A stretch of 40,293 nucleotides of DNA, from NCBI GenBank assembly GCA_963974945.1, contig CAXBFT010000001.1, positions 1 through 40,293 on the forward strand, written 5' to 3'. This stretch comes from an uncultured Alphaproteobacteria bacterium. Its GTDB lineage: Bacteria; Pseudomonadota; Alphaproteobacteria; Micavibrionales; Micavibrionaceae. Below are positions 3,927 to 40,293 of this stretch, one piece after another. Numbering within the stretch: position 1 is the stretch's first letter; each line of letters begins with the position of its first letter. The translations under genes were made by a program, and so were the position numbers. The notes beneath the pieces are model-generated. The model saw only the letters and a list, made by a program, of their open reading frames with translations. It searched no databases and was not told where the DNA came from.

Positions 3927-4352
3927 ATGCAACAAGCACAAACACTTACATGGGATGAAACTGAGATCGCAAACGCCCGCGCCGCCGAATTCTTGGCCTC
4001 CGAAATTGCTGAAACCGAAGAAGAAGCCTTCTCTATGGCAATATCGGATACGCAAGTCATAGAATGGGAATTCGAAGATTTTAAGGAACAGCTTAAAACC
4101 ATTCTTGACGATATTTCGCCCGAAGGCTTTTTCTATGTAGAAGGCCGGAATATGGGCTGGAGACGATTATCAGGCCATGCGGAGATAAAAGCAGATAGTG
4201 CAGAATCCTATATTAAAAAAGCCTTCCCTAAAACATCGGAATGGACGTTTCGAGGCGTTTACACCCCTTCCAAAAAGTCTTTGGATTATGCGCTTTATCA
4301 CCATGACGCGCCTACTGGAGAGTTTTATACTGTCATTGCAAATTCGGCATAA
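3927..4352 (+). CDS. Hypothetical protein (141 aa, acidic N-terminus)
   Basis: ORF with RBS AAAGGAA. I recognise no family. Its last 130 nt are part of the 272-bp tandem duplication. Confidence 0.55.
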   Translation: MQQAQTLTWDETEIANARAAEFLASEIAETEEEAFSMAISDTQVIEWEFEDFKEQLKTILDDISPEGFFYVEGRNMGWRRLSGHAEIKADSAESYIKKAFPKTSEWTFRGVYTPSKKSLDYALYHHDAPTGEFYTVIANSA

Positions 4353-9236: not shown

Positions 9237-11315
9237 ATGAGGGCTTGGGAAGCGAAGTTGATGTTTTTAGATCGGATCAGGGCTGAGAATTTTACGGGGA
9301 GCGATGGCGTTTCCCGGCCATTGATCGTGACCAGAGATAGCCCAAGAAAAGCGTTCTTCAAAAAGCTCAATCGTCATGGCGAAGTGAAGTCGGGACCGAA
9401 AAAGATTAAACGCAGATCAGGATTGATGCGCGGTAATTCATTTGCAGGTTTGGCATCGGCGCAGCGCGTTGTTGTGAAAATCAATCCGGTAAAGAATAAG
9501 ACCAAAGGTGTTGGATCGGGCGCCAATTCAGGCGGCCAAAATCTCTATCATCATATTCATTACATCAGCCGAAACAGGGCAGGGGAGGATGGTGAAAAAG
9601 CCATCCTGTTTGATGCTAAAAACGAGGGATTGGAGCGTCAAGATTTCTTTGAGTTATGCAAAAATGATCGTCACCATTTTCGGATGATACTCTCACCGGA
9701 GCGGGGTGATGAGATCGAAGATTTCAGAGGCTATGTTCGTGAGGTCATGAAGCGAGTCGAGGGTGATCTCAAGACCAAGCTCTCATGGGTGGCGGCTGTT
9801 CATTACGATACCGATGATGTCCATGCCCATGTGATCATTCGGGGCAAAGGTGCGCGCGGTGAGGATCTGGTGATGGCCCGCGATTATATCGCTTTTGGTA
9901 TTCGCGCAAGAGCGCAGGAGATTGCAACCGAGCTATTGGGTGAGCGCTCGATTGAAGATATTCAAAAGGGCTTGGAGAAGGAAGTGGACGCGCTGCGGGT
10001 CACTTCTTTAGACCGCTTTATTGAAAAGCACGTAGGCGCAGATCAGGTGGTCGATGTCCGCAAAGAAAACAATTTCGGCAAATCAGCGCATTATGAGTCT
10101 GTGCTTAAAGGGCGGTTGCGCTATCTGGCCTCAAGCGGTATGGCTGTCGAAAACCCTCCAGGCGTCTATACACTGAAAGAGGGTTATAGAGATGTCTTGG
10201 CGAGCATTGCCACGCGCAATGATGTCATTAAAAAGCTGTATGAGCGTGTAGAGGGCTTGGATGATCTGGAAGTCTATTCTCTAAAAGCCGGAGAAGGGCA
10301 AGTCATTGAGGGGCGCGTTTTGGATAAGGGGCCAGCCGATGAGCTAACAGATAAGAAATACATCGTTGTTGAATCCTTATCAGGCGGCAAGCATTACGTT
10401 CCGGTAGGTGAAGCCTTTAATTATGATGAGGTAAATAAGCGGGGTTTAGTAAGGGTTCGTCCTTTTGATCAATCAACCGGCAAGGCTGATCATAATATTG
10501 CGATGATTGCAGGGCAGAATGAGGGCATTTACGATATTGAGAAACACCGAGCCTATATATCAGCCGAGCAGTCTTATATTGATGAAGATGTACGAGAGCC
10601 TTACTTACAATCCCATATCAAACGGATTGAGACATTAGTTGCAAATGAGGCTGTCACAGAATTAGGGCAGGGGCGTTATCAAATCCCTGATGATGTGATC
10701 GAAAAGGGCAAAGAGATATCTGCCAAAATCAATGCGCGTGAGAAAAAGCGGTTCTATCCAAAGCTTGATATTCTCTCATCCCATGCGCCGGAAGATATGG
10801 TCGATGCGAAAAAGAAGACCTGGCTTGATAAAGAGCTTTATAAGCGAGGGCGCGGGGATCGCAGTATTACAGACCAATCTCTGGAAACTGCCCTTCAAAA
10901 ACGTCAGCAATGGCTTGTCGATAATAAGTTCGCAATGATCCAGTCTAATGGTGAGTTTGCCATGAAGAAATCAGTGATGCGTGATCTCAGCGTTATGGAA
11001 GTGCATGAAGAGGGTAAATTCTTGGCCACAAAAGCCGGTCTCACTTTTAACGATCATAAAGTCTCATCCGATCAAGCTTATACCTATCTTGGCTATACCG
11101 AGCTTGAGACAGGAAAATGGGCGGTTGCGATGCGCGGAAAAGAGTTGCAAATGGCGCGGATTGACAAAGCCCCCGACCTTGAAAAAGGGCAAAAGGTTCA
11201 ATTTAGCGAGATCGAGCGCGGACTATTCGAAATGCGCGCCGTCGAAAAACAGAAACAGCTAGAACAGCAGCAATCCTCACGCGGGCGTGATGATGATAAT
11301 GAAATGGAGCTATAA
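9237..11315 (+). CDS. Relaxase/mobilization nuclease with a DUF3363-like C-terminus (MOBP/VirD2-like)
   Basis: His-triad motif HYDTDDVHAHVIIRG. DRHHFRMILSPE and DLVMARDYIAFGIRARAQE match my recollection of DUF3363 relaxases. The start codon is uncertain (9237 or the ATG at 9267). Confidence 0.85.
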   Translation: MRAWEAKLMFLDRIRAENFTGSDGVSRPLIVTRDSPRKAFFKKLNRHGEVKSGPKKIKRRSGLMRGNSFAGLASAQRVVVKINPVKNKTKGVGSGANSGGQNLYHHIHYISRNRAGEDGEKAILFDAKNEGLERQDFFELCKNDRHHFRMILSPERGDEIEDFRGYVREVMKRVEGDLKTKLSWVAAVHYDTDDVHAHVIIRGKGARGEDLVMARDYIAFGIRARAQEIATELLGERSIEDIQKGLEKEVDALRVTSLDRFIEKHVGADQVVDVRKENNFGKSAHYESVLKGRLRYLASSGMAVENPPGVYTLKEGYRDVLASIATRNDVIKKLYERVEGLDDLEVYSLKAGEGQVIEGRVLDKGPADELTDKKYIVVESLSGGKHYVPVGEAFNYDEVNKRGLVRVRPFDQSTGKADHNIAMIAGQNEGIYDIEKHRAYISAEQSYIDEDVREPYLQSHIKRIETLVANEAVTELGQGRYQIPDDVIEKGKEISAKINAREKKRFYPKLDILSSHAPEDMVDAKKKTWLDKELYKRGRGDRSITDQSLETALQKRQQWLVDNKFAMIQSNGEFAMKKSVMRDLSVMEVHEEGKFLATKAGLTFNDHKVSSDQAYTYLGYTELETGKWAVAMRGKELQMARIDKAPDLEKGQKVQFSEIERGLFEMRAVEKQKQLEQQQSSRGRDDDNEMEL

Positions 11316-12180: not shown

Positions 12181-12489
12181 ATGGTATCACTTATAACGCC
12201 CGCAAAAGCACAAAAAAAGATCGCAGAACAAGCACGCGCGCGACGTTTACAAATGGAATTAACGCAGGAAGGTCTGGCGGAGCGCTCAGGTGTTGCATTG
12301 CCGACCCTTCGCAAGTTTGAACGCACGGGCGCTCTATCCCTGGAATCATTTCTTAAGCTTCACATGGTGCTTGGCGGATTGGAAGATATCCTTAAAGCTA
12401 CGCAAATTAAAGAAGAGAGCTATTCTTCCATCGATGATGTATTGAAGTCAGATAACGTACCTATCCGCAAGAGAGGGACACGCAAATGA
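12181..12489 (+). CDS. hipB: XRE-family HTH antitoxin (HipB-like)
   Basis: HTH LTQEGLAERSGVALPTLRKFERTG. It overlaps hipA by 4 nt. Confidence 0.8.
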   Translation: MVSLITPAKAQKKIAEQARARRLQMELTQEGLAERSGVALPTLRKFERTGALSLESFLKLHMVLGGLEDILKATQIKEESYSSIDDVLKSDNVPIRKRGTRK

Positions 12490-13730
12490 AGAACTATCTC
12501 TCTGCAACAGAAGTAAGGGTCGGCATTAATTTTGGCGAAGGTGTTCAAACTGTAGGCAGATTAGCTGTACGGGAGCACAAGATTTATTTTGAATATGATA
12601 GCGCCTTTATAAAAAGCGGCATAGAGATATCACCGCTACGCTTATCTTTAAGACCAGGTGTTCAAGGTTTTGATCATGATCTTTTTGAAGGCTTGCCCGG
12701 TGTATTTAACGATAGCTTGCCTGATGGTTGGGGACGGTTATTGTTTGATCGTTTTATAAGATCACAGGGAATATTGCCCTCAGATATAACACCGCTTGAT
12801 CGCTTGGCGCATGTGGGGTCACATGCTCTTGGCGCACTTGTGTTTGAACCTGATCACAGCGCAGATGATACACAAGGCGATATAAACCTTGATAACCTTG
12901 CCTCGCAAGCGCAAGAGGTTTTGGACGGAACGTCGGATGACGTATTGGCGGAACTCATAGCCTTAAACGGATCTTCAGCGGGAGCAAGGCCAAAAGCACT
13001 AATCGGTGTAAACGAGAAAAGGGATCATATCATTCATGGTCTACATGATTTACCCGCAGGTTATGCACCATGGATGGTTAAATTCCCGAATAGTCAAGAT
13101 GGGCTAGATGCCGGTGCAATCGAATTTGTATATGCATTGATGGCAAAAGAGGCTGGCATTACCATGCCTGATGTTCATCTTTTTCAAGCAGAGCGCGGCG
13201 CAGGTTATTTTGCGATTAAGCGCTTTGATCGTGATGGTGACAAACGATACCACATGCACACGGCTTGCGGATTGTTGCATTCAGATTTCCGCACACCTTC
13301 ATTGGATTACGAAGATTTAATTGCGCTCACTGGTATGCTGACTCGCGATGTGCGTGAGGTGGAAAAGCTATATCAGCTGGCCGTGTTTAACGTGTTAGCT
13401 CATAATCGCGATGATCATTCCAAAAATTTCAGTTATTTGATGGATAGCCAAGGGGGATGGAAACTTTCCCCTGCCTATGACCTCACATTCTCATCTGGCC
13501 CACGCGGCGAACAAAGCATGATGGTTATGGGTGAAGGTAAAAACCCTGATACAAGCCATCTGTTAAAGCTGGCAGATGAAGCGAAAATCAAAAAAGACCG
13601 TGCGCTTGAGATTATTGAGAGCACAAAATCCAGCTTGTCCAAATGGTCAGAACTTGCAAAGCAATATGGCGTTAATGATACAAACATTCAGCTGATACAA
13701 AGCAAAATATCGCAGGTGGCCGGCAAATAA
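12486..13730 (+). CDS. hipA: HipA-family serine/threonine kinase toxin
   Basis: 414 aa. Catalytic-loop motif HNRDDHSKNFS, a GSSAGARPK P-loop-like motif, and the N-terminal HipA coupling region. Confidence 0.9.
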   Translation: MKNYLSATEVRVGINFGEGVQTVGRLAVREHKIYFEYDSAFIKSGIEISPLRLSLRPGVQGFDHDLFEGLPGVFNDSLPDGWGRLLFDRFIRSQGILPSDITPLDRLAHVGSHALGALVFEPDHSADDTQGDINLDNLASQAQEVLDGTSDDVLAELIALNGSSAGARPKALIGVNEKRDHIIHGLHDLPAGYAPWMVKFPNSQDGLDAGAIEFVYALMAKEAGITMPDVHLFQAERGAGYFAIKRFDRDGDKRYHMHTACGLLHSDFRTPSLDYEDLIALTGMLTRDVREVEKLYQLAVFNVLAHNRDDHSKNFSYLMDSQGGWKLSPAYDLTFSSGPRGEQSMMVMGEGKNPDTSHLLKLADEAKIKKDRALEIIESTKSSLSKWSELAKQYGVNDTNIQLIQSKISQVAGK

Positions 13731-27137: not shown

Positions 27138-27965
27138 TTAAGCGACATTCTGAATTTCTTCAAAACCCGCATTTTCGAAATCCACTGGTGACATATAATT
27201 GTTAGCCGAGTGAATTCTGATGCGGTTATAGAACACTTCGATATATTCAAATATTACATGCTTGGCTTCCTCCCTGTTTTTAAATTTGTGGTGGTGGGTT
27301 AGTTCCGTTTTTAGCGTATGAAAAAAGCTCTCGGCCACCGCATTATCCCAGCAATCCCCCTTGCGGCTCATGCTTTGGATTATGTGATGGTCTTTCAATA
27401 GGCTGCGGTGGCTTTTCGAGGCGTATTGGCTGCCGCGATCGGTGTGCCAGAGCAAACCTTTAGCTGGTTTTCGCTGCCAAATAGCCATCAATAGCGCGTC
27501 GTTAACAAGGCTTGCCTGCATACGGTTACTCATCGACCAGCCTACAACCTGCCGAGAATAAAGGTCAATCACCGTGGCAAGATACAGCCAGCCTTTGCTT
27601 GTCGGGATGTAGGTGATATCACCAACCCAATATTGATCGGGGCTTGAGACGTTAAACTGCCGACGTAAGAGGTTTGGCGATATGGGGTTGTCGTGCCTTG
27701 AGTTGGTTGTAACTTTAAACCTTCGCTTGGTTTTGCAATATAGCTGCGCTGCCTTCATTAACCTTGCAATGCGTTTGCGCCCGACTGTTTTACCGAACTG
27801 TAATAGCCTGCGCCTTATCCGCCGAGTACCGTAAAGGCTTCGGCTTTCCTCGAATATTTGGCAGACCAGAGAGCTTAACTCTTCGTCTTCTTTTTTACGG
27901 TTACTTTTCGATGGATTTAGCCATTGATAATATGAGCTGCGAGATACACTCAAGAAGTGGCACAT
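27138..27965 (-). CDS. IS3 transposase OrfB (DDE integrase core); expected to be expressed as an OrfAB fusion by -1 frameshift
   Basis: DDE residues are in [17 protein letters not shown] and DNAVAESFF. By coordinate arithmetic the frame is -1 relative to orfA. The true coding region extends upstream to the slippery site near 28050. Confidence 0.9.
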
Positions 27966-28303: not shown

Positions 28304-29394
28304 TGTTCATTATTCCTTCTGTTTAGACTTTTATATATTTTCTGTCCGGAATAGTGTAGCCACATCAGGATGGAGCAGAATATACATTAGGGATTGAACA
28401 GCAAATTGAAATTGCCGGTAAACGTTCCAAGCGTGAACAGGTTGCTTCACTCGAAAAGCAACAAGCCAGTCAAGAGGCACTTGCTGGTATTCAGGCCACG
28501 TTGGCGCAAACCAAGGCTGCCTTTATGCGCGTGGTAATAGCTCAGGAACGTCTGAGCCTTGCTGATAAGCGTGTGATGCTAGCCGATAAAACGCATACGA
28601 CTGTAAAAAATCGTATAAGCGCGGCGAAGTCTGCTGATATTCAGCACACTAAGGCGGACATTGAAATGGCGGCGGCGGAAGTGGAGCAGCGCAAGGCTGT
28701 GAAGGAACTGGATATAGCCAAAACCGAACTTGCAAACTTGATGGGTGTGTACACGTTGGATGCTGTTATTTCATCCGATTTGAGCACTTTGCCAGATGTG
28801 CCGGAACGTGAGGTTCTGATGCAGGCATTGGAGAAAACACCGATGAGCACATTCAGCCAGCTTTTGGTTTTACGAGAAAACTCTGCGCTTGATCTGGCGT
28901 GGGCTAATGGCGTGGCCGATCCGACGTTCGGGCTTGGTGTACGCCGTTATAATGAGGATGATGGTACAGCGTTTTTAGCCAGTGTCTCCATTCCAATCAC
29001 TATTTTTGATCGTAACCAAGGTAATATTGCGCAGGCCAAGGCCAATGTTTTAGCTGCTGAATCTGATCAGAGGGCGCAAACTCTCAATTTGACACGGCAA
29101 GCTGAGGAACTTTTAAAAACCCTGATAAGCGCCAAGGAAGAAGTGCTAGCCTATCAAGATGGTATTTTACCTTCTGCGCAGCGCGCTTATGCACAGGCCG
29201 AGGAAGGCTTTGAGCGGGGCGCGTTTTCTTTTCTCGATCTCCTGGATGCACAGCGCACGTTGTTTGATGTACAGGAGAGCCACCTTGAGGCTTTGGCATC
29301 CTTCCATGAAACAAAATCAAAAATCGACATGCTGACCGGGGAATATGCGCCAGTTGCAGCCTCGGTTTTTAACATCAATGAAAAGGAATAAATT

Positions 29395-34905: not shown

Positions 34906-35790
34906 ATGGGACACGGACATTCACACGGTGATCCTTCAGAAATTGGAGAGCGCCGCCTTTGGTGGGCGGTGCTGGCCAATATTATGCTTACCTTCGCGCA
35001 AATTATCGGCGGGATCATTTCCGGTTCGCTCTCGCTTATTGCTGATGCGCTGCATAATTTCAGTGATGCAGCCTCGCTTCTTATTGCGCTGGTGGCGATC
35101 CGCATAGGTCGCAAACCGCCCGATCAGTTTAAAACCTTCGGCTATAAACGGGCGGAAACTGTGGCTGCGCTGATCAATCTGACCACGCTTATCATTATCG
35201 GCCTTTATCTTTGCTATGAAGCCGTGATGCGCTTTGTAACACCGGAGCCTGTCGCGGGCTGGACAGTCGTTATTGTGGCCGGAATTGCGCTGGTAGTAGA
35301 TGTTTTTACAGCGGCGCTGACATACAGTCAGTCGAAAAGCAGTATGAATATAAAGGCGGCTTTCCTTCATAATTTGACGGATGCTTTGGCTTCCGTTGGG
35401 GTGATTATCACAGGGACGCTTATTTTACTTTATGGCTGGGTCTGGACAGATGCCGCCATGACGCTGATTATTTCCGGCTATGTTTTGTGGCAAGGCTTTA
35501 CTGAAATTCCGAAAGTTATTCATTTGCTCATGGAAGGTACGCCGGAGGGCATGGACATTCAGCAAGTGGTTGCCGCTATGGAGAACGATAAGGATGTGGC
35601 AGGTGTTCATCATGTTCATATCACCATTTATTTTACAACCCGCCCCGATTGGCGGGTTTTTCTTTGCCTGAAAGGCCAAGTACCGTGCGGTTTTCGCATT
35701 AGTACGCATACTCTTAGAGCGCGTTCAAAGCGCGTTTTCTCTCTCGATTTTCTTGATTTCTCTCGCGCTTTGAGGACGAAGAGCGCGTAA
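34906..35790 (+). CDS. CDF transporter (CzcD/ZitB-like) with a non-native 3' end; likely truncated
   Basis: N-terminal MGHGHSHGD, then SLIADALHNFSDAASL and HNLTDALASVG. The family pattern stops after VHHVHI (about 35622), where W is expected. The remaining 56 codons run through a terminator-like hairpin. Confidence 0.7.
   Translation: MGHGHSHGDPSEIGERRLWWAVLANIMLTFAQIIGGIISGSLSLIADALHNFSDAASLLIALVAIRIGRKPPDQFKTFGYKRAETVAALINLTTLIIIGLYLCYEAVMRFVTPEPVAGWTVVIVAGIALVVDVFTAALTYSQSKSSMNIKAAFLHNLTDALASVGVIITGTLILLYGWVWTDAAMTLIISGYVLWQGFTEIPKVIHLLMEGTPEGMDIQQVVAAMENDKDVAGVHHVHITIYFTTRPDWRVFLCLKGQVPCGFRISTHTLRARSKRVFSLDFLDFSRALRTKSA
35637..35665 (+). terminator. Terminator-like hairpin inside the aberrant tail of the CDF ORF
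   Basis: AACCCGCC (35637-35644), loop CCGATT, GGCGGGTT (35651-35658), then TTTCTTT. Confidence 0.55.
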
Positions 35791-35955
35791 ATGATGCAGG
35801 CTAACTAGCAGAATTTGCGTGTTTTTGCACATACCAGTTCTTCATCCACAACTGTTCATTTGAAGACAGTTTAAAAATTTTTGATTTAGTCCCGTCATTT
35901 TTCCGATGGCCTTTGTACCAGCGTGGAAGAGCAACCAAAAACGGGAGTTTTTCCG

Positions 35956-36171
35956 ATGAACCTGTCAACCAAAGATCCATCTGAAATGACCGCGCAAGAG
36001 CGCGTTCATGAAATAGCCAGCATTCTGGCAACGGCTGTCCTGCGTGGCAGCATTATTGAACAAAATCAATATATTGAGAGAGGTTTGACTGGACTTCGGA
36101 GCGCTTCGAAGCATTCATGCGATGACCAAAAAAGGTCGAGTTTGAGAACGAAGAAAAAGGCTCACGCATGA
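35956..36171 (+). CDS. Small hypothetical protein, first gene of the recombinase operon
   Basis: MNLSTKDPSEMTAQERVHEIASILATAVLRG. I prefer the ATG at 35956 over the GTG at 35923. An ATGA overlap links it to the next gene. Confidence 0.5.
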   Translation: MNLSTKDPSEMTAQERVHEIASILATAVLRGSIIEQNQYIERGLTGLRSASKHSCDDQKRSSLRTKKKAHA

Positions 36172-36662
36172 AAATTGATGTACTGAAACAGTATGCAGCG
36201 CTGGAGGCGATGACGCCAAAGGAGCTGCTGGTTGAATGGGTGAAATATTATGACCAGCCACCCAAAACACGAACAAATAAGACTTACCTCGTCAATCAGA
36301 TCATCTACCGGATTCAGGAGATAGTATATGGAGGTCTTACCAAAAGCACCATTGATCGCTTAGAGGCGCTGGCTGGAGAGAAATCAGTTGATCAGCGAAA
36401 ACACGATCCTGCACGTCTGGCGGTGGGAACGCGATTGGTTCGTGAGGTCAAGGGCGTTGAGCATCACGTTATGGTGATGGATGACGGCTATGAATATCAG
36501 GGCATGAAATACAAATCGTTGTCCGGCGTTGCTTATGCCATCACTGGCACACGCTGGAACGGCAATATATTTTTTGGTTTGGGCTATCAAAAGCCCGATC
36601 ATGAAAAACGACCAACGCCTCGACTGCGCCGGGTGAAACCTGGCGGAAAGGCTAAATCATGA
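36168..36662 (+). CDS. DUF2924-like protein
   Basis: LEAMTPKELLVEWVKYYDQPP...LVNQIIYRIQEIVYGGL matches my recollection of DUF2924, a usual partner of large serine recombinases. ATGA overlaps occur on both sides. Confidence 0.65.
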   Translation: MKIDVLKQYAALEAMTPKELLVEWVKYYDQPPKTRTNKTYLVNQIIYRIQEIVYGGLTKSTIDRLEALAGEKSVDQRKHDPARLAVGTRLVREVKGVEHHVMVMDDGYEYQGMKYKSLSGVAYAITGTRWNGNIFFGLGYQKPDHEKRPTPRLRRVKPGGKAKS

Positions 36663-38029
36663 TCGGGACAGGTATTACAGAAAAACGAAACCTGCGCTGT
36701 GCGATTTACACGCGTGTGTCCGATGATGAAGGTCTGGATCAGGAATTCAACTCGCTGGACGCGCAACGCGAAGCTGGCGAATATCACATCAAAGCACAGG
36801 CACATGAAGGCTGGCGTGTTTTGCCGGAGCGTTATGACGATGGCGGATACTCAGCCAAGGACTTAAACAGGCCCGCTGCAAAACGTCTGTTGCAGGATAT
36901 TAAAGACGGCAAGATCGATGTAGTCGTTGTCTATAAGATTGACCGTATGTCTCGCAACATGGGTGACTTTGTCGAACTCATGAAGCTGTTCGAGCAATAC
37001 AAAGTCACCTTTGTCTCCGTGACCCAGCATTTTAATACGGAAACGGCGATGGGGAAACTCATCCTGAATATCCTGCAGTCTTTTGCGCAATTCGAACGTG
37101 AAATGACGGCAGAGCGTATTCGCGACAAGTTTGCAGCTTCGAAAATGAAAGGGATGTGGATGGGCGGCCCGCCACCGCTGGGCTACGATGTGGTCGACCG
37201 CAAGCTGGTGATAAATTCGCAAGAGGCTAAACTCGTCGGCCATATTTTTGAACGGTTCTTGGCGCTGGGATCGGTCACGATGCTCATTTCGGAATTGAAC
37301 CGGGATGGATACACCACGAAATCCTATATCAGCCGCACCAACAACCCTGTTGGCGGAAAGCCCTTCACGATGAATACAATACTGACCTTGCTGAGAAACC
37401 GGCTATTGGTTGGCGATGTCCATCACAAAGGCAAATATTATCCAGGACAGCATAAGCCCATCGTTAAGCGTGAAGATTTTGAAAAGGTACAGGCCAGTTT
37501 TAGCGAAAACCGATATGAGAAGCGGAAGCGTACCTGGAAGATCAAGTCAAAGGCTCTGCTGAAGGGCATCCTTTATTGCTCGGCTTGCGGTGGAGCTATG
37601 TCACCGGCACACACGCGCAAGAAAAACAAGCATTATCACTATTACCAAGCCAACTCATACCGCAAGCAGTTTTGTGAGCAATGTCCGACAAATCGTATCC
37701 CTGCCGGAGAAATCGAGGCCATTATTATCAGCCAGCTGAAGGCCATCTTTGCCGCTCCCCAGCTGCTCATTGAAGTGTGGCGGAAAATTCGTGCAAACGA
37801 TAGCGGCTACAGCGAACGCGATTTGCATGACAGCCTGCAGCACCTCGGTTCGCTTTGGGATGCCTTATTCCCAGCGGAACAGAAACGTATCATGCATTTG
37901 CTAATCGACCGGGTGATGGTTCGTACCGATGGCATCGATGTCGAATACTTTGCCAATGGCTTCGATAATATCGTGATACAGCTCCAGCAAAGCATTAACG
38001 CGAACACCAAGGAAAGGATCGCCGCATGA
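36659..38029 (+). CDS. Large serine recombinase
   Basis: The resolvase catalytic domain (RCAIYTRVSDDEG, VVVYKIDRMSRN) is followed by a recombinase domain and a Cys-pair zinc-ribbon region (CSACGG...CEQCP). Confidence 0.9.
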   Translation: MIGTGITEKRNLRCAIYTRVSDDEGLDQEFNSLDAQREAGEYHIKAQAHEGWRVLPERYDDGGYSAKDLNRPAAKRLLQDIKDGKIDVVVVYKIDRMSRNMGDFVELMKLFEQYKVTFVSVTQHFNTETAMGKLILNILQSFAQFEREMTAERIRDKFAASKMKGMWMGGPPPLGYDVVDRKLVINSQEAKLVGHIFERFLALGSVTMLISELNRDGYTTKSYISRTNNPVGGKPFTMNTILTLLRNRLLVGDVHHKGKYYPGQHKPIVKREDFEKVQASFSENRYEKRKRTWKIKSKALLKGILYCSACGGAMSPAHTRKKNKHYHYYQANSYRKQFCEQCPTNRIPAGEIEAIIISQLKAIFAAPQLLIEVWRKIRANDSGYSERDLHDSLQHLGSLWDALFPAEQKRIMHLLIDRVMVRTDGIDVEYFANGFDNIVIQLQQSINANTKERIAA

Positions 38030-38445
38030 ATTTTCAACTCGATAACGACACAGGCAAAATCATCGTCCATGTACCGATAAATTTTCGGCGCTGGGGCGGA
38101 AAAAAGGTGTTGATCGGCCCGCAGGGCGAAGATCTGCGGCTTTTGGAAAAAGAAATCCGCAAAGATGAGAAATTGCTCAAGGCTCTGGCGCGGGCATACA
38201 AATGGCAGAAGCTGATCGCCATAGGGAAATATCAAAACTCAGGCGATATTGAAATGGTGGAGCAAATCAACAGATCGTATGTGCAGCGTGTGATGCGGAT
38301 GATGTTGCTGTCGCCACGCATCATCGAGGCTATTTTGAATGGAGAGCAACCCGAAGGCTTTGCCCTGACAGATATCGACAAGACTTTCTCACCGCTTTGG
38401 GACAAGCAGGCCGAGCAGTTCGGCTTTACTTTCCGGCATCAATAA
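38026..38445 (+). CDS. Recombinase-associated small protein (139 aa)
   Basis: It has an ATGA overlap with the recombinase stop. INRSYVQRVMRMMLLSPRIIEAILNGEQPEG resembles a motif I recall from recombinase-linked DNA-binding proteins (unverified). Confidence 0.5.
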   Translation: MNFQLDNDTGKIIVHVPINFRRWGGKKVLIGPQGEDLRLLEKEIRKDEKLLKALARAYKWQKLIAIGKYQNSGDIEMVEQINRSYVQRVMRMMLLSPRIIEAILNGEQPEGFALTDIDKTFSPLWDKQAEQFGFTFRHQ

Positions 38446-38836
38446 AGCGTTTACGCGCCTTTAGGATTTTTGTGTGATTGTCGTTCGCCCAGTTGAAAAC
38501 TTCCCACAAAGGGATCAGGAAAGATTTGCCAAGAAACGTTAAGCTGTATTCCACACTCGGCGGTTTTGTTGGAAAAACCTTTCTGTTTATCAGGCCGTCT
38601 CTTTCAAGATCACGCAATATCTGGGTTAGCACTCGTTGTGAAATTTCAGGAAGTTCTCGCTTTAACTCACCGAAACGTAAAGGGCTTTGGGCCAGCGCGA
38701 TAATAATAAAAGCATTCCATTTACCACTCAACTGACCCAAAGCATCTCTGAATGGATGATGCTTTATTGTTTGAAATTTCTCTCTCCAAGCGCGACACTG
38801 CTCGTCAAGTTTTCTTGCAGCCTCGCGTATTGGCAT
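38426..38836 (-). CDS. HxlR-family winged-helix transcriptional regulator
   Basis: LSGKWNAFIIIALAQSPLRFGELKRELPEISQRVLTQILRDLERDGLINRKVFPTKPPSVEYSLT is a textbook HxlR pattern. Confidence 0.85.
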   Translation of the reverse strand: MPIREAARKLDEQCRAWREKFQTIKHHPFRDALGQLSGKWNAFIIIALAQSPLRFGELKRELPEISQRVLTQILRDLERDGLINRKVFPTKPPSVEYSLTFLGKSFLIPLWEVFNWANDNHTKILKARKRFIDAGK

Positions 38837-38860
38837 TAATGCTCTCCTGCTGGAAATCGA

Positions 38861-39232
38861 TTACTTACCGCGTTTCGACAACCATTCCTGCATCATCTCT
38901 ATCTCGGCTTCTTGAGCTGTGATTACTTCTTTTGCCAATTTGCGGACCTCTGAATCTTTGCCATACTTCAAAGCAACGTGGGCCATGTCGATAGCGCCTT
39001 GGTGGTGTGGGATCATACCGCGCATGAAATCAATATCAGCATCCCCTGTGAAGTTTATCGCCATGTTGGCATGCATTTTATTGTTCGCTTCCTGATAAGC
39101 ACTGATCACCTGATTGTCGGATTTTTCGTTCATGCTCATATTGTGACCAGCGTGACCGGATTCACTCATGGCAGGTTTCTCATAGGCAACAGCAACAGCA
39201 GCAGCGGTTAAAACGGTTCTAACTTGGGACAT
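38861..39232 (-). CDS. DUF305 domain protein (secreted)
   Basis: Signal peptide, then [12 protein letters not shown] and [23 protein letters not shown], which are DUF305 hallmarks. Confidence 0.8.
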
Positions 39233-39271
39233 AGCTTGGCTCCTTGCTTGAAATAACTGAATGTAATTTTG

Positions 39272-39302
39272 AGTGTAATCCTTCCCATCGTTGGAAGGTC
39301 AA
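39272..39302 (-). promoter_or_regulatory. MerR/CueR-type promoter-operator driving the DUF305-HxlR unit
   Basis: The minus strand reads TTGACC, then TTCCAACGATGGGAAGGAT (19 nt), then TACACT. The dyad is CCTTCC-N7-GGAAGG. Confidence 0.65.
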
Positions 39303-39355
39303 GCTCTTTAATGAACGAGTTCATAATCGAATATTAGGCTCAATACTTTAGGCTA

Positions 39356-39386
39356 TTGACCTTCCTGCTATAGGAAGGTGTAAGCT
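39356..39386 (+). promoter_or_regulatory. MerR/CueR-type promoter-operator driving the MFS gene
   Basis: TTGACC (39356-39361), then TTCCTGCTATAGGAAGGTG (19 nt), then TAAGCT (39381-39386). The dyad is ACCTTCC-N7-GGAAGGT. Confidence 0.65.
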
Positions 39387-39410
39387 GGATCAACGTTTAA
39401 AGGTGATCTC

Positions 39411-40293
39411 ATGAATTTCTTTGCAAGCGACATTCTTTCAAATAAAACTTACCGCAATCTATTCTTTGCACAGGTGATCGCGCTAATCGGTACAGGGCTT
39501 GCCACAGTCGCACTGGGGCTTCTTGCCTATGACATTGCGGGCGGTGATGCCGGAACCGTTCTGGGGACGGCGATGGCGATCAAGATGATCGCCTATATTG
39601 GTATCGCCCCGATTGTGGGGGCTTATGCCAACCGCCTGCCGCGCCGTGCTTTTCTTGTGGCGATGGATCTGGTGCGTGCGGGCGTGGCCATATGCCTGCC
39701 GTTTGTCGATCAAGTCTGGCAGATTTATATTCTTATCTTCCTTTTGCAATCGGCGTCAGCCGCTTTCACCCCGACATTCCAGGCAACAATCCCGGACGTG
39801 CTGCCCAAAGAAAAAGACTACACCCGCGCTCTGTCGCTCTCGCGGCTGGCCTACGACATGGAAAGTCTGACCAGCCCGATGCTGGCGGCGGCACTTTTGA
39901 CGATCATTGATTTTCACTGGCTGTTCTCCGGTACGGCGGTTGGTTTTGCCCTCTCGGCGTTGCTGGTGATGGCGACCATCCTGCCTAAAGCGGCAAGCAC
40001 CACGACAATCCGCAAAGAAGGCGTGATTGCGAAAACAACACGCGGCATGCGCTTTTATTTGAAAACACCGCGCCTGCGCGGGCTTTTGGCGATTACGCTG
40101 GCCGCCGCTGCCGCCAGTTCCATGGTCATCGTCAATACGGTCGTGATCGTGCGTGACACGCTGGGATTGTCGCAAACCGATGTGGCGATCACGCTGGCGG
40201 CGTTCGGCGGCGGATCAATCATTGCCGCATTCTTGTTGCCACGTCTTTTGGACCGGATTTCCGACAGGCGCATCATGATATTGTCAGCCATCG
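39411..40293 (+). CDS. MFS transporter (partial; runs off the right edge)
   Basis: This is my own translation, because the ORF has no stop in the window and is absent from the track. MNFFASDILSNKTYRNLFFAQVIALIGTGLATVALGLLAYDIAG... has many TM segments and the loop motif GAYANRLPRR. RBS AAAGGTGA. Confidence 0.8.
   Translation, partial: MNFFASDILSNKTYRNLFFAQVIALIGTGLATVALGLLAYDIAGGDAGTVLGTAMAIKMIAYIGIAPIVGAYANRLPRRAFLVAMDLVRAGVAICLPFVDQVWQIYILIFLLQSASAAFTPTFQATIPDVLPKEKDYTRALSLSRLAYDMESLTSPMLAAALLTIIDFHWLFSGTAVGFALSALLVMATILPKAASTTTIRKEGVIAKTTRGMRFYLKTPRLRGLLAITLAAAAASSMVIVNTVVIVRDTLGLSQTDVAITLAAFGGGSIIAAFLLPRLLDRISDRRIMILSAI

Follow-up and report, generated by a model that had tools for sequence, protein, structure and literature searches.

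Two divergent CueR-type promoters with 19-nt spacers on a putative mobile copper-resistance island of an uncultured alphaproteobacterium

Which regulator acts on the short intergenic region close to the right end of contig CAXBFT010000001.1 (GenBank assembly GCA_963974945.1), from an uncultured member of the Micavibrionaceae (Alphaproteobacteria), and what would it switch on? The stretch analyzed here, called the window below, comprises the 40,293 nucleotides of positions 1 to 40,293 of this contig. Near its right edge, a DUF305/CopM-family gene (copM), followed by a gene for an HxlR-family regulator (hxlR), diverges from a gene coding for a major facilitator superfamily (MFS) transporter of the NreB type, and between them are two promoter-like cassettes that point away from each other. 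An original prediction, made from the letters alone, had described them as CueR/MerR-type promoters without any MerR-family gene in the window. From the sequence comparisons presented here, we consider it probable (about 0.85) that both sites function as CueR-dependent sigma-70 promoters that respond to Cu(I) and are located on a mobile copper-resistance island of the serine-recombinase type. The two cassettes, which had been predicted correctly to the base (coordinates, sequences, 19-nt spacers and dyads) and which both have the defining features of CueR/HmrR-dependent promoters, are the following.

39356-39386, plus strand: rightward CueR-type cassette, predicted to drive the NreB-like MFS gene; -35 hexamer TTGACC at 39356-39361, 19-nt spacer TTCCTGCTATAGGAAGGTG at 39362-39380, -10 hexamer TAAGCT at 39381-39386, dyad at 39360-39378.
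39272-39302, minus strand: leftward CueR-type cassette, predicted to drive copM-hxlR; -35 hexamer TTGACC at 39302-39297, 19-nt spacer TTCCAACGATGGGAAGGAT at 39296-39278, -10 hexamer TACACT at 39277-39272, dyad at 39280-39298.

The spacer is exactly 19 nt in both cases (from TTGACC to TAAGCT or TACACT), and the two dyads are the only perfect CCTTCC-N7-GGAAGG sequences in the 40 kb of the window. Even with one mismatch allowed, such a dyad appears 0.08 times per shuffled window, and none of 100 shuffles reached two. A strict scan for the whole cassette (-35 with at most one mismatch, dyad with at most two mismatches in fixed register, 19-nt spacer and a -10 matching xAxxxT) recovered these two sites and no others, the mean over 200 shuffles being 0.01, and found no cassette in ca. 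800 kb belonging to 79 unrelated loci. It could be argued that sigma-70-like hexamer pairs and a palindrome have come together by chance, given that the copM-MFS intergenic region is AT-rich, with 39% GC versus 46% over the window as a whole, and that several more short palindromes are present in it. However, with 0.01 cassettes expected per window and two observed, none in the control loci, a cognate regulator encoded in the adjacent DNA and the cassettes conserved in diverged copies of the module (both described below), this explanation is already effectively refuted by statistics and conservation. A generic sigma-70 scan of the window calls neither site, which is expected for MerR-type promoters because the scanner accepts only spacers of 16-18 nt; therefore, this miss is not evidence against the promoters. 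A distance of 80 bp separates the two dyad centres, and the divergent promoters do not overlap. An Rfam scan of positions 38300-40293 at E <= 1 gave no structured RNA.

The register of -35, dyad and -10 is the one found in the E. coli copA promoter, as read from the genome, with the left dyad arm overlapping the -35 hexamer. The E. coli operator had been given rightly in the original prediction: of 5,426 complete E. coli genomes, 5,423 contain CTTGACCTTCCCCTTGCTGGAAGGTTTAACCT, 32 bp 5' of copA. Permina et al. 2006 gave the CueR signal as ACCTTCCC-(5)-TGGAAGGT and described 19-bp spacers as needed for CueR/HmrR regulation (PMC1526738); both cassettes fit this signal and the spacer rule. The similarity thus covers PcopA and PcueO of E. 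coli as well as the alphaproteobacterial actP(copA)-hmrR system: TTGACC overlapping the left arm of ACCTTCC-N7-GGAAGGT, a 19-bp spacer and a common register. The difference from PcopA and PcueO lies in the targets, which are here copM-hxlR and the NreB-type MFS gene instead of copA or cueO, and in the number of such promoters, four on a single island. Downstream, an AGGTGA Shine-Dalgarno sequence is found on the rightward side 24 nt 3' of the -10 and 5' of the MFS start codon (ATG at 39411), and on the leftward side AGGAG is located 39 nt 3' of the -10, ahead of the copM start codon (ATG at 39232). The flanking genes, named beforehand as a DUF305-HxlR unit and an MFS transporter, are indeed these.

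38861-39232, minus strand: copM, 123-aa metallochaperone of the DUF305/CopM family (Pfam DUF305, E = 1.5e-18).
38426-38836, minus strand: hxlR, 136-aa winged-helix regulator of the HxlR family (Pfam HxlR, PF01638, E = 2.1e-25).
39411-40293, plus strand: 5' 294 codons of the gene for a 450-aa MFS cation exporter of the NreB/NcrA type (Pfam MFS_1 and MFS_3), cut by the window edge.

As for the regulator, the window is devoid of MerR-family genes: a tblastn search with CueR against all six frames had a best E of 1.6, and no MerR was detected among the open reading frames (ORFs) scanned against Pfam. The original prediction placed a CueR-like activator elsewhere and proposed looking past the right edge or on the chromosome, and it is past this edge that we found one. 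A DUF305 protein of identical sequence occurs in 340 blocks of the assembly collection, and two contigs, L002 and L004, are 100% identical to positions 35622-40293 of the window over 4,672 bp. A megablast of positions 38400-40293 against the plasmid collection found no near-identical plasmid DNA. Past the right edge, L002 and L004 complete the MFS gene, which codes for 450 aa and spans L002 9822-8470, and it is followed by a copZ-like gene whose 64-aa product has an HMA domain. A 150-aa MerR-family gene, directly 3' of the gene for an 828-aa copper P-type ATPase (copA), converges on this pair, and farther on there are genes for a Csp-like protein, a CusF/cupredoxin-like protein, CopB and a multicopper oxidase. 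The MerR-family gene is located ca. 2 kb beyond the window edge as second gene of a copA-cueR operon, the arrangement that has been described for actP-hmrR (PMC1526738). Its product scores 169.9 bits on the CueR equivalog model of NCBIfam (TIGR02044, cut-off 147.4) and remains below the own cut-offs of the ZntR, MerR and CadR models, and its best match among solved structures is E. coli CueR itself (1q05, E = 3.6e-29). The alignment to 1q05 is ungapped over residues 1-127, so that Ser77, Cys112 and Cys120 stand at the same positions and the metal-site residues of E. coli CueR are conserved. In CueR proteins, Cys112-X7-Cys120 makes up the metal-binding loop, and Ser77 selects for +1 ions. By every test made, the sequence of the island regulator identifies it as a CueR.

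This does not by itself tell which protein works at the two sites. They could be real MerR-type operators served by a different paralogue, either a CueR/HmrR of the host or a gold/silver-selective regulator like GolS or CupR, so that the inducer would not be copper or the island CueR would be dispensable. CueR, HmrR, GolS and CupR recognize nearly identical operators, from which metal preference is not assignable (for the similarity of CueR and HmrR, see PMC1526738); besides, the regulator gene is absent from the window itself, and the island is found in several genetic contexts, so the CueR proteins of different hosts would also see these sites. Still, the island codes for its own CueR, above the equivalog cut-off and with the Cu(I)-site residues, only 2 kb away and behind a cassette of the same kind; cueR accompanies the cassettes in every copy examined (L001-L006, L103 and L107), and the neighbours (copA, copZ, copM, the multicopper oxidase gene, copB and the Csp-like gene) are all copper genes. 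We consider service by another paralogue improbable and take the island CueR as the likely activator.

Two further cassettes were found on the island. The third precedes copA and reads TTGACC/TTCCCATGATGGGAAGGTG/TACTAT (L002 5192-5222), and the fourth, TTGACC/TTCCAACGATGGGAAGCCC/CATACT, is located in the 69 bp that separate the MFS stop codon from the start of copZ. From this position, copZ would have a copper-responsive promoter of its own, independent of read-through from the MFS gene. The whole design is repeated in a diverged copy of the module (L103/L104), in which the MFS protein is 79% identical to that of the window and the gene order is unchanged, with the DUF305 gene diverging from MFS-copZ and with cueR and copA converging on them. 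All four cassettes are kept in L103 at the corresponding positions.

L002 8432-8462, minus strand (also L006 6361-6391): copZ cassette, ca. 1.4 kb beyond the right edge of the window.
L103 4945, plus strand, and 4881, minus strand: counterparts of the two window cassettes, on the MFS side and the copM side, respectively.

When the copM-MFS intergenic regions of the window and L103 are aligned, only two islands of conservation stand out, which are the two cassettes, and the rest has diverged. Conservation restricted to the cassettes is the footprint that functional sites would be expected to leave. A sister island without copM and the MFS gene (L107) has back-to-back cassettes as well, in this case in the intergenic region between copZ and hxlR (L107 3818-3963); one of them, TTGACC/TTACAACGGTGGGAAGGTC/TACAGT, directly faces hxlR (ATG at 4001), and the other would drive copZ.

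By analogy with E. coli CueR, and drawing on crystal and cryo-EM structures (1q05, 4wlw, 6ldi and 6xh7) as well as on established knowledge of the family, the two promoters may work as follows. A dimer of the island CueR would bind each ACCTTCC-N7-GGAAGGT dyad within the over-long 19-bp spacer. Without metal, the -35 and -10 hexamers would be out of phase and transcription would stay low. Binding of Cu(I) (and probably of Ag(I) or Au(I) as well) to Cys112/Cys120 would make CueR kink and undertwist the spacer; the hexamers would be realigned by this distortion, and sigma-70 RNA polymerase could initiate at the start sites presumed for the two cassettes. The leftward transcript would code for CopM, probably a periplasmic copper binder, with read-through into hxlR, and the rightward one for the NreB-type MFS cation exporter. 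Together with the cassettes predicted to drive copZ and copA-cueR, this would amount to a four-promoter regulon in which metal would switch on, all at the same time, copper export from the cytoplasm by CopA, more CueR, the cytoplasmic chaperone CopZ, CopM, the NreB-type pump and HxlR. It would be a clean example of a mobile resistance island that brings its own sensor and has several operons wired through one promoter cassette.

Most of this is textbook CueR biology, with a well-known class of promoters in a recurrent layout; only two points are unusual, namely, the placing of an NreB-type pump behind a CueR cassette and the predicted CueR-driven transcription of an HxlR regulator that belongs to the island backbone. 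The copM side illustrates the recurrent part. Its product scores 125.5 bits on the NCBIfam CopM model (NF049983, cut-off 90) and has the His-His motif PHHQ (MIPHHQGAI), a His/Met-rich N-terminal region and what is, as judged by eye, a probable Sec signal peptide. CopM of Synechocystis is copper induced, binds copper, is found in the periplasm and the extracellular space and is needed for copper resistance, and the conserved His-His motif of CopM/DUF305 proteins was described in the same study (PMC4335983); these data establish the link of the family to copper. The original prediction held that copper control of a DUF305 protein was not a described module, but this claim finds no support: the protein belongs to the CopM metallochaperone family, and CueR cassettes in front of DUF305 genes or copZ-DUF305 operons are common. 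CopM homologues are present on 2,568 plasmids, from which we sampled 12 taxonomically diverse loci (L087-L099 except L089). In seven of them, a CueR cassette precedes a DUF305 gene or operon, and the other five have none. Four of the seven (Sphingobium yanoikuyae, Mesorhizobium, Agrobacterium tumefaciens and Neotabrizicola) have back-to-back CueR sites separating copA-cueR from copZ-DUF305, and in three (Ralstonia, Acinetobacter with an adjacent cueR, and Paraburkholderia) a cassette stands before a DUF305 gene or before an operon in which a DUF305 gene is the last. With 7/12 sampled loci, back-to-back CueR promoters and CueR control of DUF305 genes are recurrent genomic patterns, and DUF305/CopM genes appear as frequent members of CueR regulons in Proteobacteria (Alpha-, Beta- and Gammaproteobacteria). 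A Klebsiella locus linked to sil genes (L089), inspected separately, had no CueR cassette.

The four back-to-back loci share with the window the two opposed CueR cassettes in one intergenic region and the DUF305/CopM gene under one of them. They differ in that the partner is copA-cueR, the DUF305 gene comes after copZ and the dyad centres are 52-64 bp apart, whereas in the window the partner is the MFS gene, copM comes first with hxlR after it, and the centre-to-centre distance is 80 bp. The protein CopM of Synechocystis sp. PCC 6803 belongs to the same family, with the same His-His motif, an export signal (probable, as judged by eye, in the window protein) and copper-linked expression (predicted here), but it has two DUF305 domains and is controlled by the two-component system CopRS, while CopM of the window has a single domain (123 aa) and predicted CueR control. 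CueP and CopM are different protein families. Salmonella cueP, as cited in PMC4335983, codes for a periplasmic copper protein regulated by CueR, which would be a parallel case of a cytoplasmic sensor switching on a periplasmic copper-handling protein. In the literature searched, no paper ties DUF305 to control by CueR, and the copper control reported runs through two-component systems; the Synechocystis CopM study is the only one that names both CueR and DUF305, and it mentions CueR only with regard to cueP (PMC4335983). A differently composed candidate CueR regulon with DUF305 was seen in the Paraburkholderia fungorum plasmid NZ_CP099626.1 (L088 3398-6297), where a perfect cassette, TTGACC/TTCCTGCCATGGGAAGGTT/CATGCT, is followed by an operon that codes for an HMA-domain protein, a beta-propeller lactonase-like protein, a permease and a DUF305 protein, adjoining a heavy-metal two-component system.

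The MFS side is where the locus departs from the usual. Beyond what had been predicted, the transporter turned out to be an exporter of the NreB/NcrA/NirA type, a nickel/cobalt class, without the usual NreA repressor. It is 66% identical to the MFS gene product encoded after nccA on pMOL30, where the CH34 genome paper gives the cluster as nccCBA-nreB (PMC2864759), and 57-60% identical to the products of plasmid genes annotated as "putative NreB", "NirA nickel efflux" and "ncrA". Overall, it resembles NreB (Achromobacter xylosoxidans 31A; C. metallidurans pMOL30), NcrA and NirA in full-length identity (57-73%), in being at home in metal-resistance islands and in the His-rich C-terminal tail, whose residues H414, H416, H425, H430, H436 and H444 are invariant across the family. 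A Sphingobium homologue is nickel induced and is encoded beside a gene for the CsoR-family repressor NreA (PMC5557971). This is the usual neighbourhood of the family, with an NreA-like gene (CsoR/RcnR type) in 44 of 80 species-level loci of MFS orthologues, nearly always directly 5' of the transporter gene. Here, instead, no NreA homologue is found in the window (best E = 0.49) or, at E <= 1, in the sibling contigs L001-L005; the linkage expected of a nickel exporter is thus absent, a CueR cassette takes the place of nreA upstream, and copZ follows.

CueR control of an NreB-type MFS gene is unusual: among the 80 species-level loci, only L006, which is the same element as the window, has CueR cassettes. 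Most of the novelty claimed for the module finds no support, the DUF305 gene under CueR and the back-to-back layout being, as shown above, recurrent. A CueR box conserved across the MFS orthologues was rejected, 79 of the 80 loci being without it, and three marine alphaproteobacterial plasmid contexts of MFS homologues had no cassettes. The protein departs from the 90% consensus of the other orthologues at three positions only (R12K, H16N and A360S), so unchanged specificity would be the default expectation; copper-specific remodelling found no support, A360S being the only change in common with L103. The picture looks like regulatory rewiring of an ordinary NreB-type pump rather than a remodelled protein. 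In terms of function, the odds seem roughly even that the pump is a nickel/cobalt exporter co-induced by copper, a contribution of its own to copper or silver efflux is a tentative and rather unlikely option, and other roles, or none, account for what is left. In the literature on NreB and CueR, we found only genome surveys, with no title or abstract describing such a link. In sphingomonad NreB loci (L008-L014), a CueR-like dyad with one or two mismatches recurs at a conserved position (ca. 10,650-10,725), ca. 4.4 kb 3' of the MFS gene; it may represent a copA promoter lying where the retrieved sequence ends.

The second unusual point concerns hxlR. Its product scores 88.8 bits on PF01638 (cut-off 20.8) and falls below the cut-offs of the closest curated models, RrpA and RrpB. 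The gene starts 24 nt 3' of the copM stop codon with its own Shine-Dalgarno sequence (AGGAGAG), and no terminator is predicted between the two genes, so hxlR is probably co-transcribed with copM. On its other side, it converges on the genes of the island backbone.

35622-38445, plus strand: island backbone and left boundary (100% identity with L002 and L004 from 35622; Pfam), with a ca. 70-aa ORF, a DUF2924 gene (36168-36662), a large serine recombinase gene (36659-38029) and a 139-aa ORF (38026-38445).
35956-38836 in the window, 4001-6881 in L107, 4001-6883 in L109 and 4001-8180 in L113: backbone block.

The 3' ends of hxlR and the 139-aa ORF, which had no Pfam or NCBIfam family match, overlap by 20 nt (38426-38445). 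The conserved backbone consists of the ca. 70-aa ORF, DUF2924, the large serine recombinase, the 138/139-aa ORF and the converging hxlR, and the cargo varies: copA-cueR-copZ only in L107 (HxlR 76% identical), a resistance-nodulation-division (RND) system plus a cation diffusion facilitator (CDF) in L109 (HxlR 63% identical) and a multidrug-type RND cluster in L113 (HxlR 63% identical). From these comparisons, hxlR appears as a component of the serine-recombinase island backbone and not of the copper cargo. The divergent copper-responsive regulon of the original prediction is supported in part: both operons seem to belong to a Cu(I) regulon, shared with copA-cueR and copZ, but hxlR is as such a backbone gene of serine-recombinase islands whose cargo varies. 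Since the L107 cassette points directly at hxlR, the predicted CueR-driven transcription of this gene recurs in two copper-cargo variants of the island. Typically, an HxlR regulator has as its partner a target gene transcribed divergently from its own, e.g., one for an oxidoreductase. No such partner is present here, and hxlR converges on the recombinase operon in the window as it does in L107, L109 and L113. A palindrome between the two -35 hexamers, ATGAAC-GA-GTTCAT (39311-39324), was considered as a conserved HxlR operator and dropped, because it is missing from L103, which has no hxlR, and also from L107, which has it, as well as from L109 and L113. Literature on HxlR, CueR and copper consisted only of genome surveys, and no title or abstract describes a connection among them.

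Could the cassettes be relics of island assembly, with their linkage to the MFS gene and hxlR a hitch-hiking accident of no regulatory use? The rarity of the CueR-MFS link among the species-level loci (missing from 79/80), the backbone origin of hxlR and a transporter only three positions off the consensus would all agree with that. However, both cassettes match the consensus perfectly, they are retained at the same places in L103 despite 79% MFS identity and diverged spacer DNA, NreA is absent from every copy, and in L107 a CueR cassette would drive hxlR independently. We regard useless relics as very unlikely and maintain that the two sites are probably working CueR promoters. Some points do weigh against the latter. 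The -10 hexamers, TAAGCT and TACACT, match TATAAT only moderately, as is typical of activator-dependent promoters. The gene for the regulator is outside the window, and its linkage is deduced from contigs that are identical over the 4.7 kb shared. The putative step from copM to hxlR on one transcript is argued from the 24-nt gap and the missing terminator prediction, and the MFS family is otherwise associated with nickel, which makes it an unusual member of a copper regulon.

Two more far-reaching ideas follow from the unusual points, and we think it doubtful that even one of them is true. The first is that the NreB-type pump exports copper or silver, perhaps fed by CopZ; it is raised by two modules, with 79% identical MFS proteins, in both of which the MFS gene has stayed downstream of a CueR cassette and adjacent to copZ. 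This class of transporters is not known to export copper, so if the pump did help in copper/silver tolerance, the known set of copper exporters would be widened. The second is that CueR-driven hxlR couples copper stress to the excision, stability or transfer of the island, an idea suggested by this predicted transcription, which would converge with that of the serine-recombinase operon. An influence of transcripts from the cargo side on the mobility module, by way of the conserved convergent overlap, is speculation; if copper-induced hxlR did affect the recombinase module, metal stress would be influencing the mobility of a resistance island.

The island has been found in different surroundings. 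In the window, identity with the other copies starts at 35622, inside a CDF (Cation_efflux) ORF (34906-35790) in which the ZT_dimer domain expected at the C-terminus is missing and the end of the reading frame looks unrelated, so the insertion of the island probably hit the 3' part of a czcD-like gene belonging to the conjugative element. Other copies have chromosomal neighbours (SpoU methylase, polA) or adjoin genes for prophage tails. In L001 (11204-12205), L005 (5402-6403) and L006, the recombinase gene is truncated (333 aa), identity to the window begins only at 37169, and the neighbours are genes of a prophage tail (tape measure, Phage-tail_3 and NlpC/P60); the copper island therefore also exists as an immobilized remnant beside a prophage. 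The window itself is a conjugative element with ParB, VirB4/B6/B9/B11-like and VirD4-like type IV secretion system genes, HipA and a transposase of the IS3 family of insertion sequences (IS), and its cargo includes czcCBA, lspA and CDF genes. The ORF for the CzcC-like outer-membrane factor (28501-29391) has only 296 aa and a TTG start, ca. 500 bp 3' of the IS3-family transposase gene (27138-27965), and may have been truncated at its 5' end by the IS insertion. The HipA-family toxin gene (12486-13730) is preceded by an overlapping ORF of 102 aa (12181-12489), and the two probably form a hipBA-type toxin-antitoxin pair on the conjugative element.

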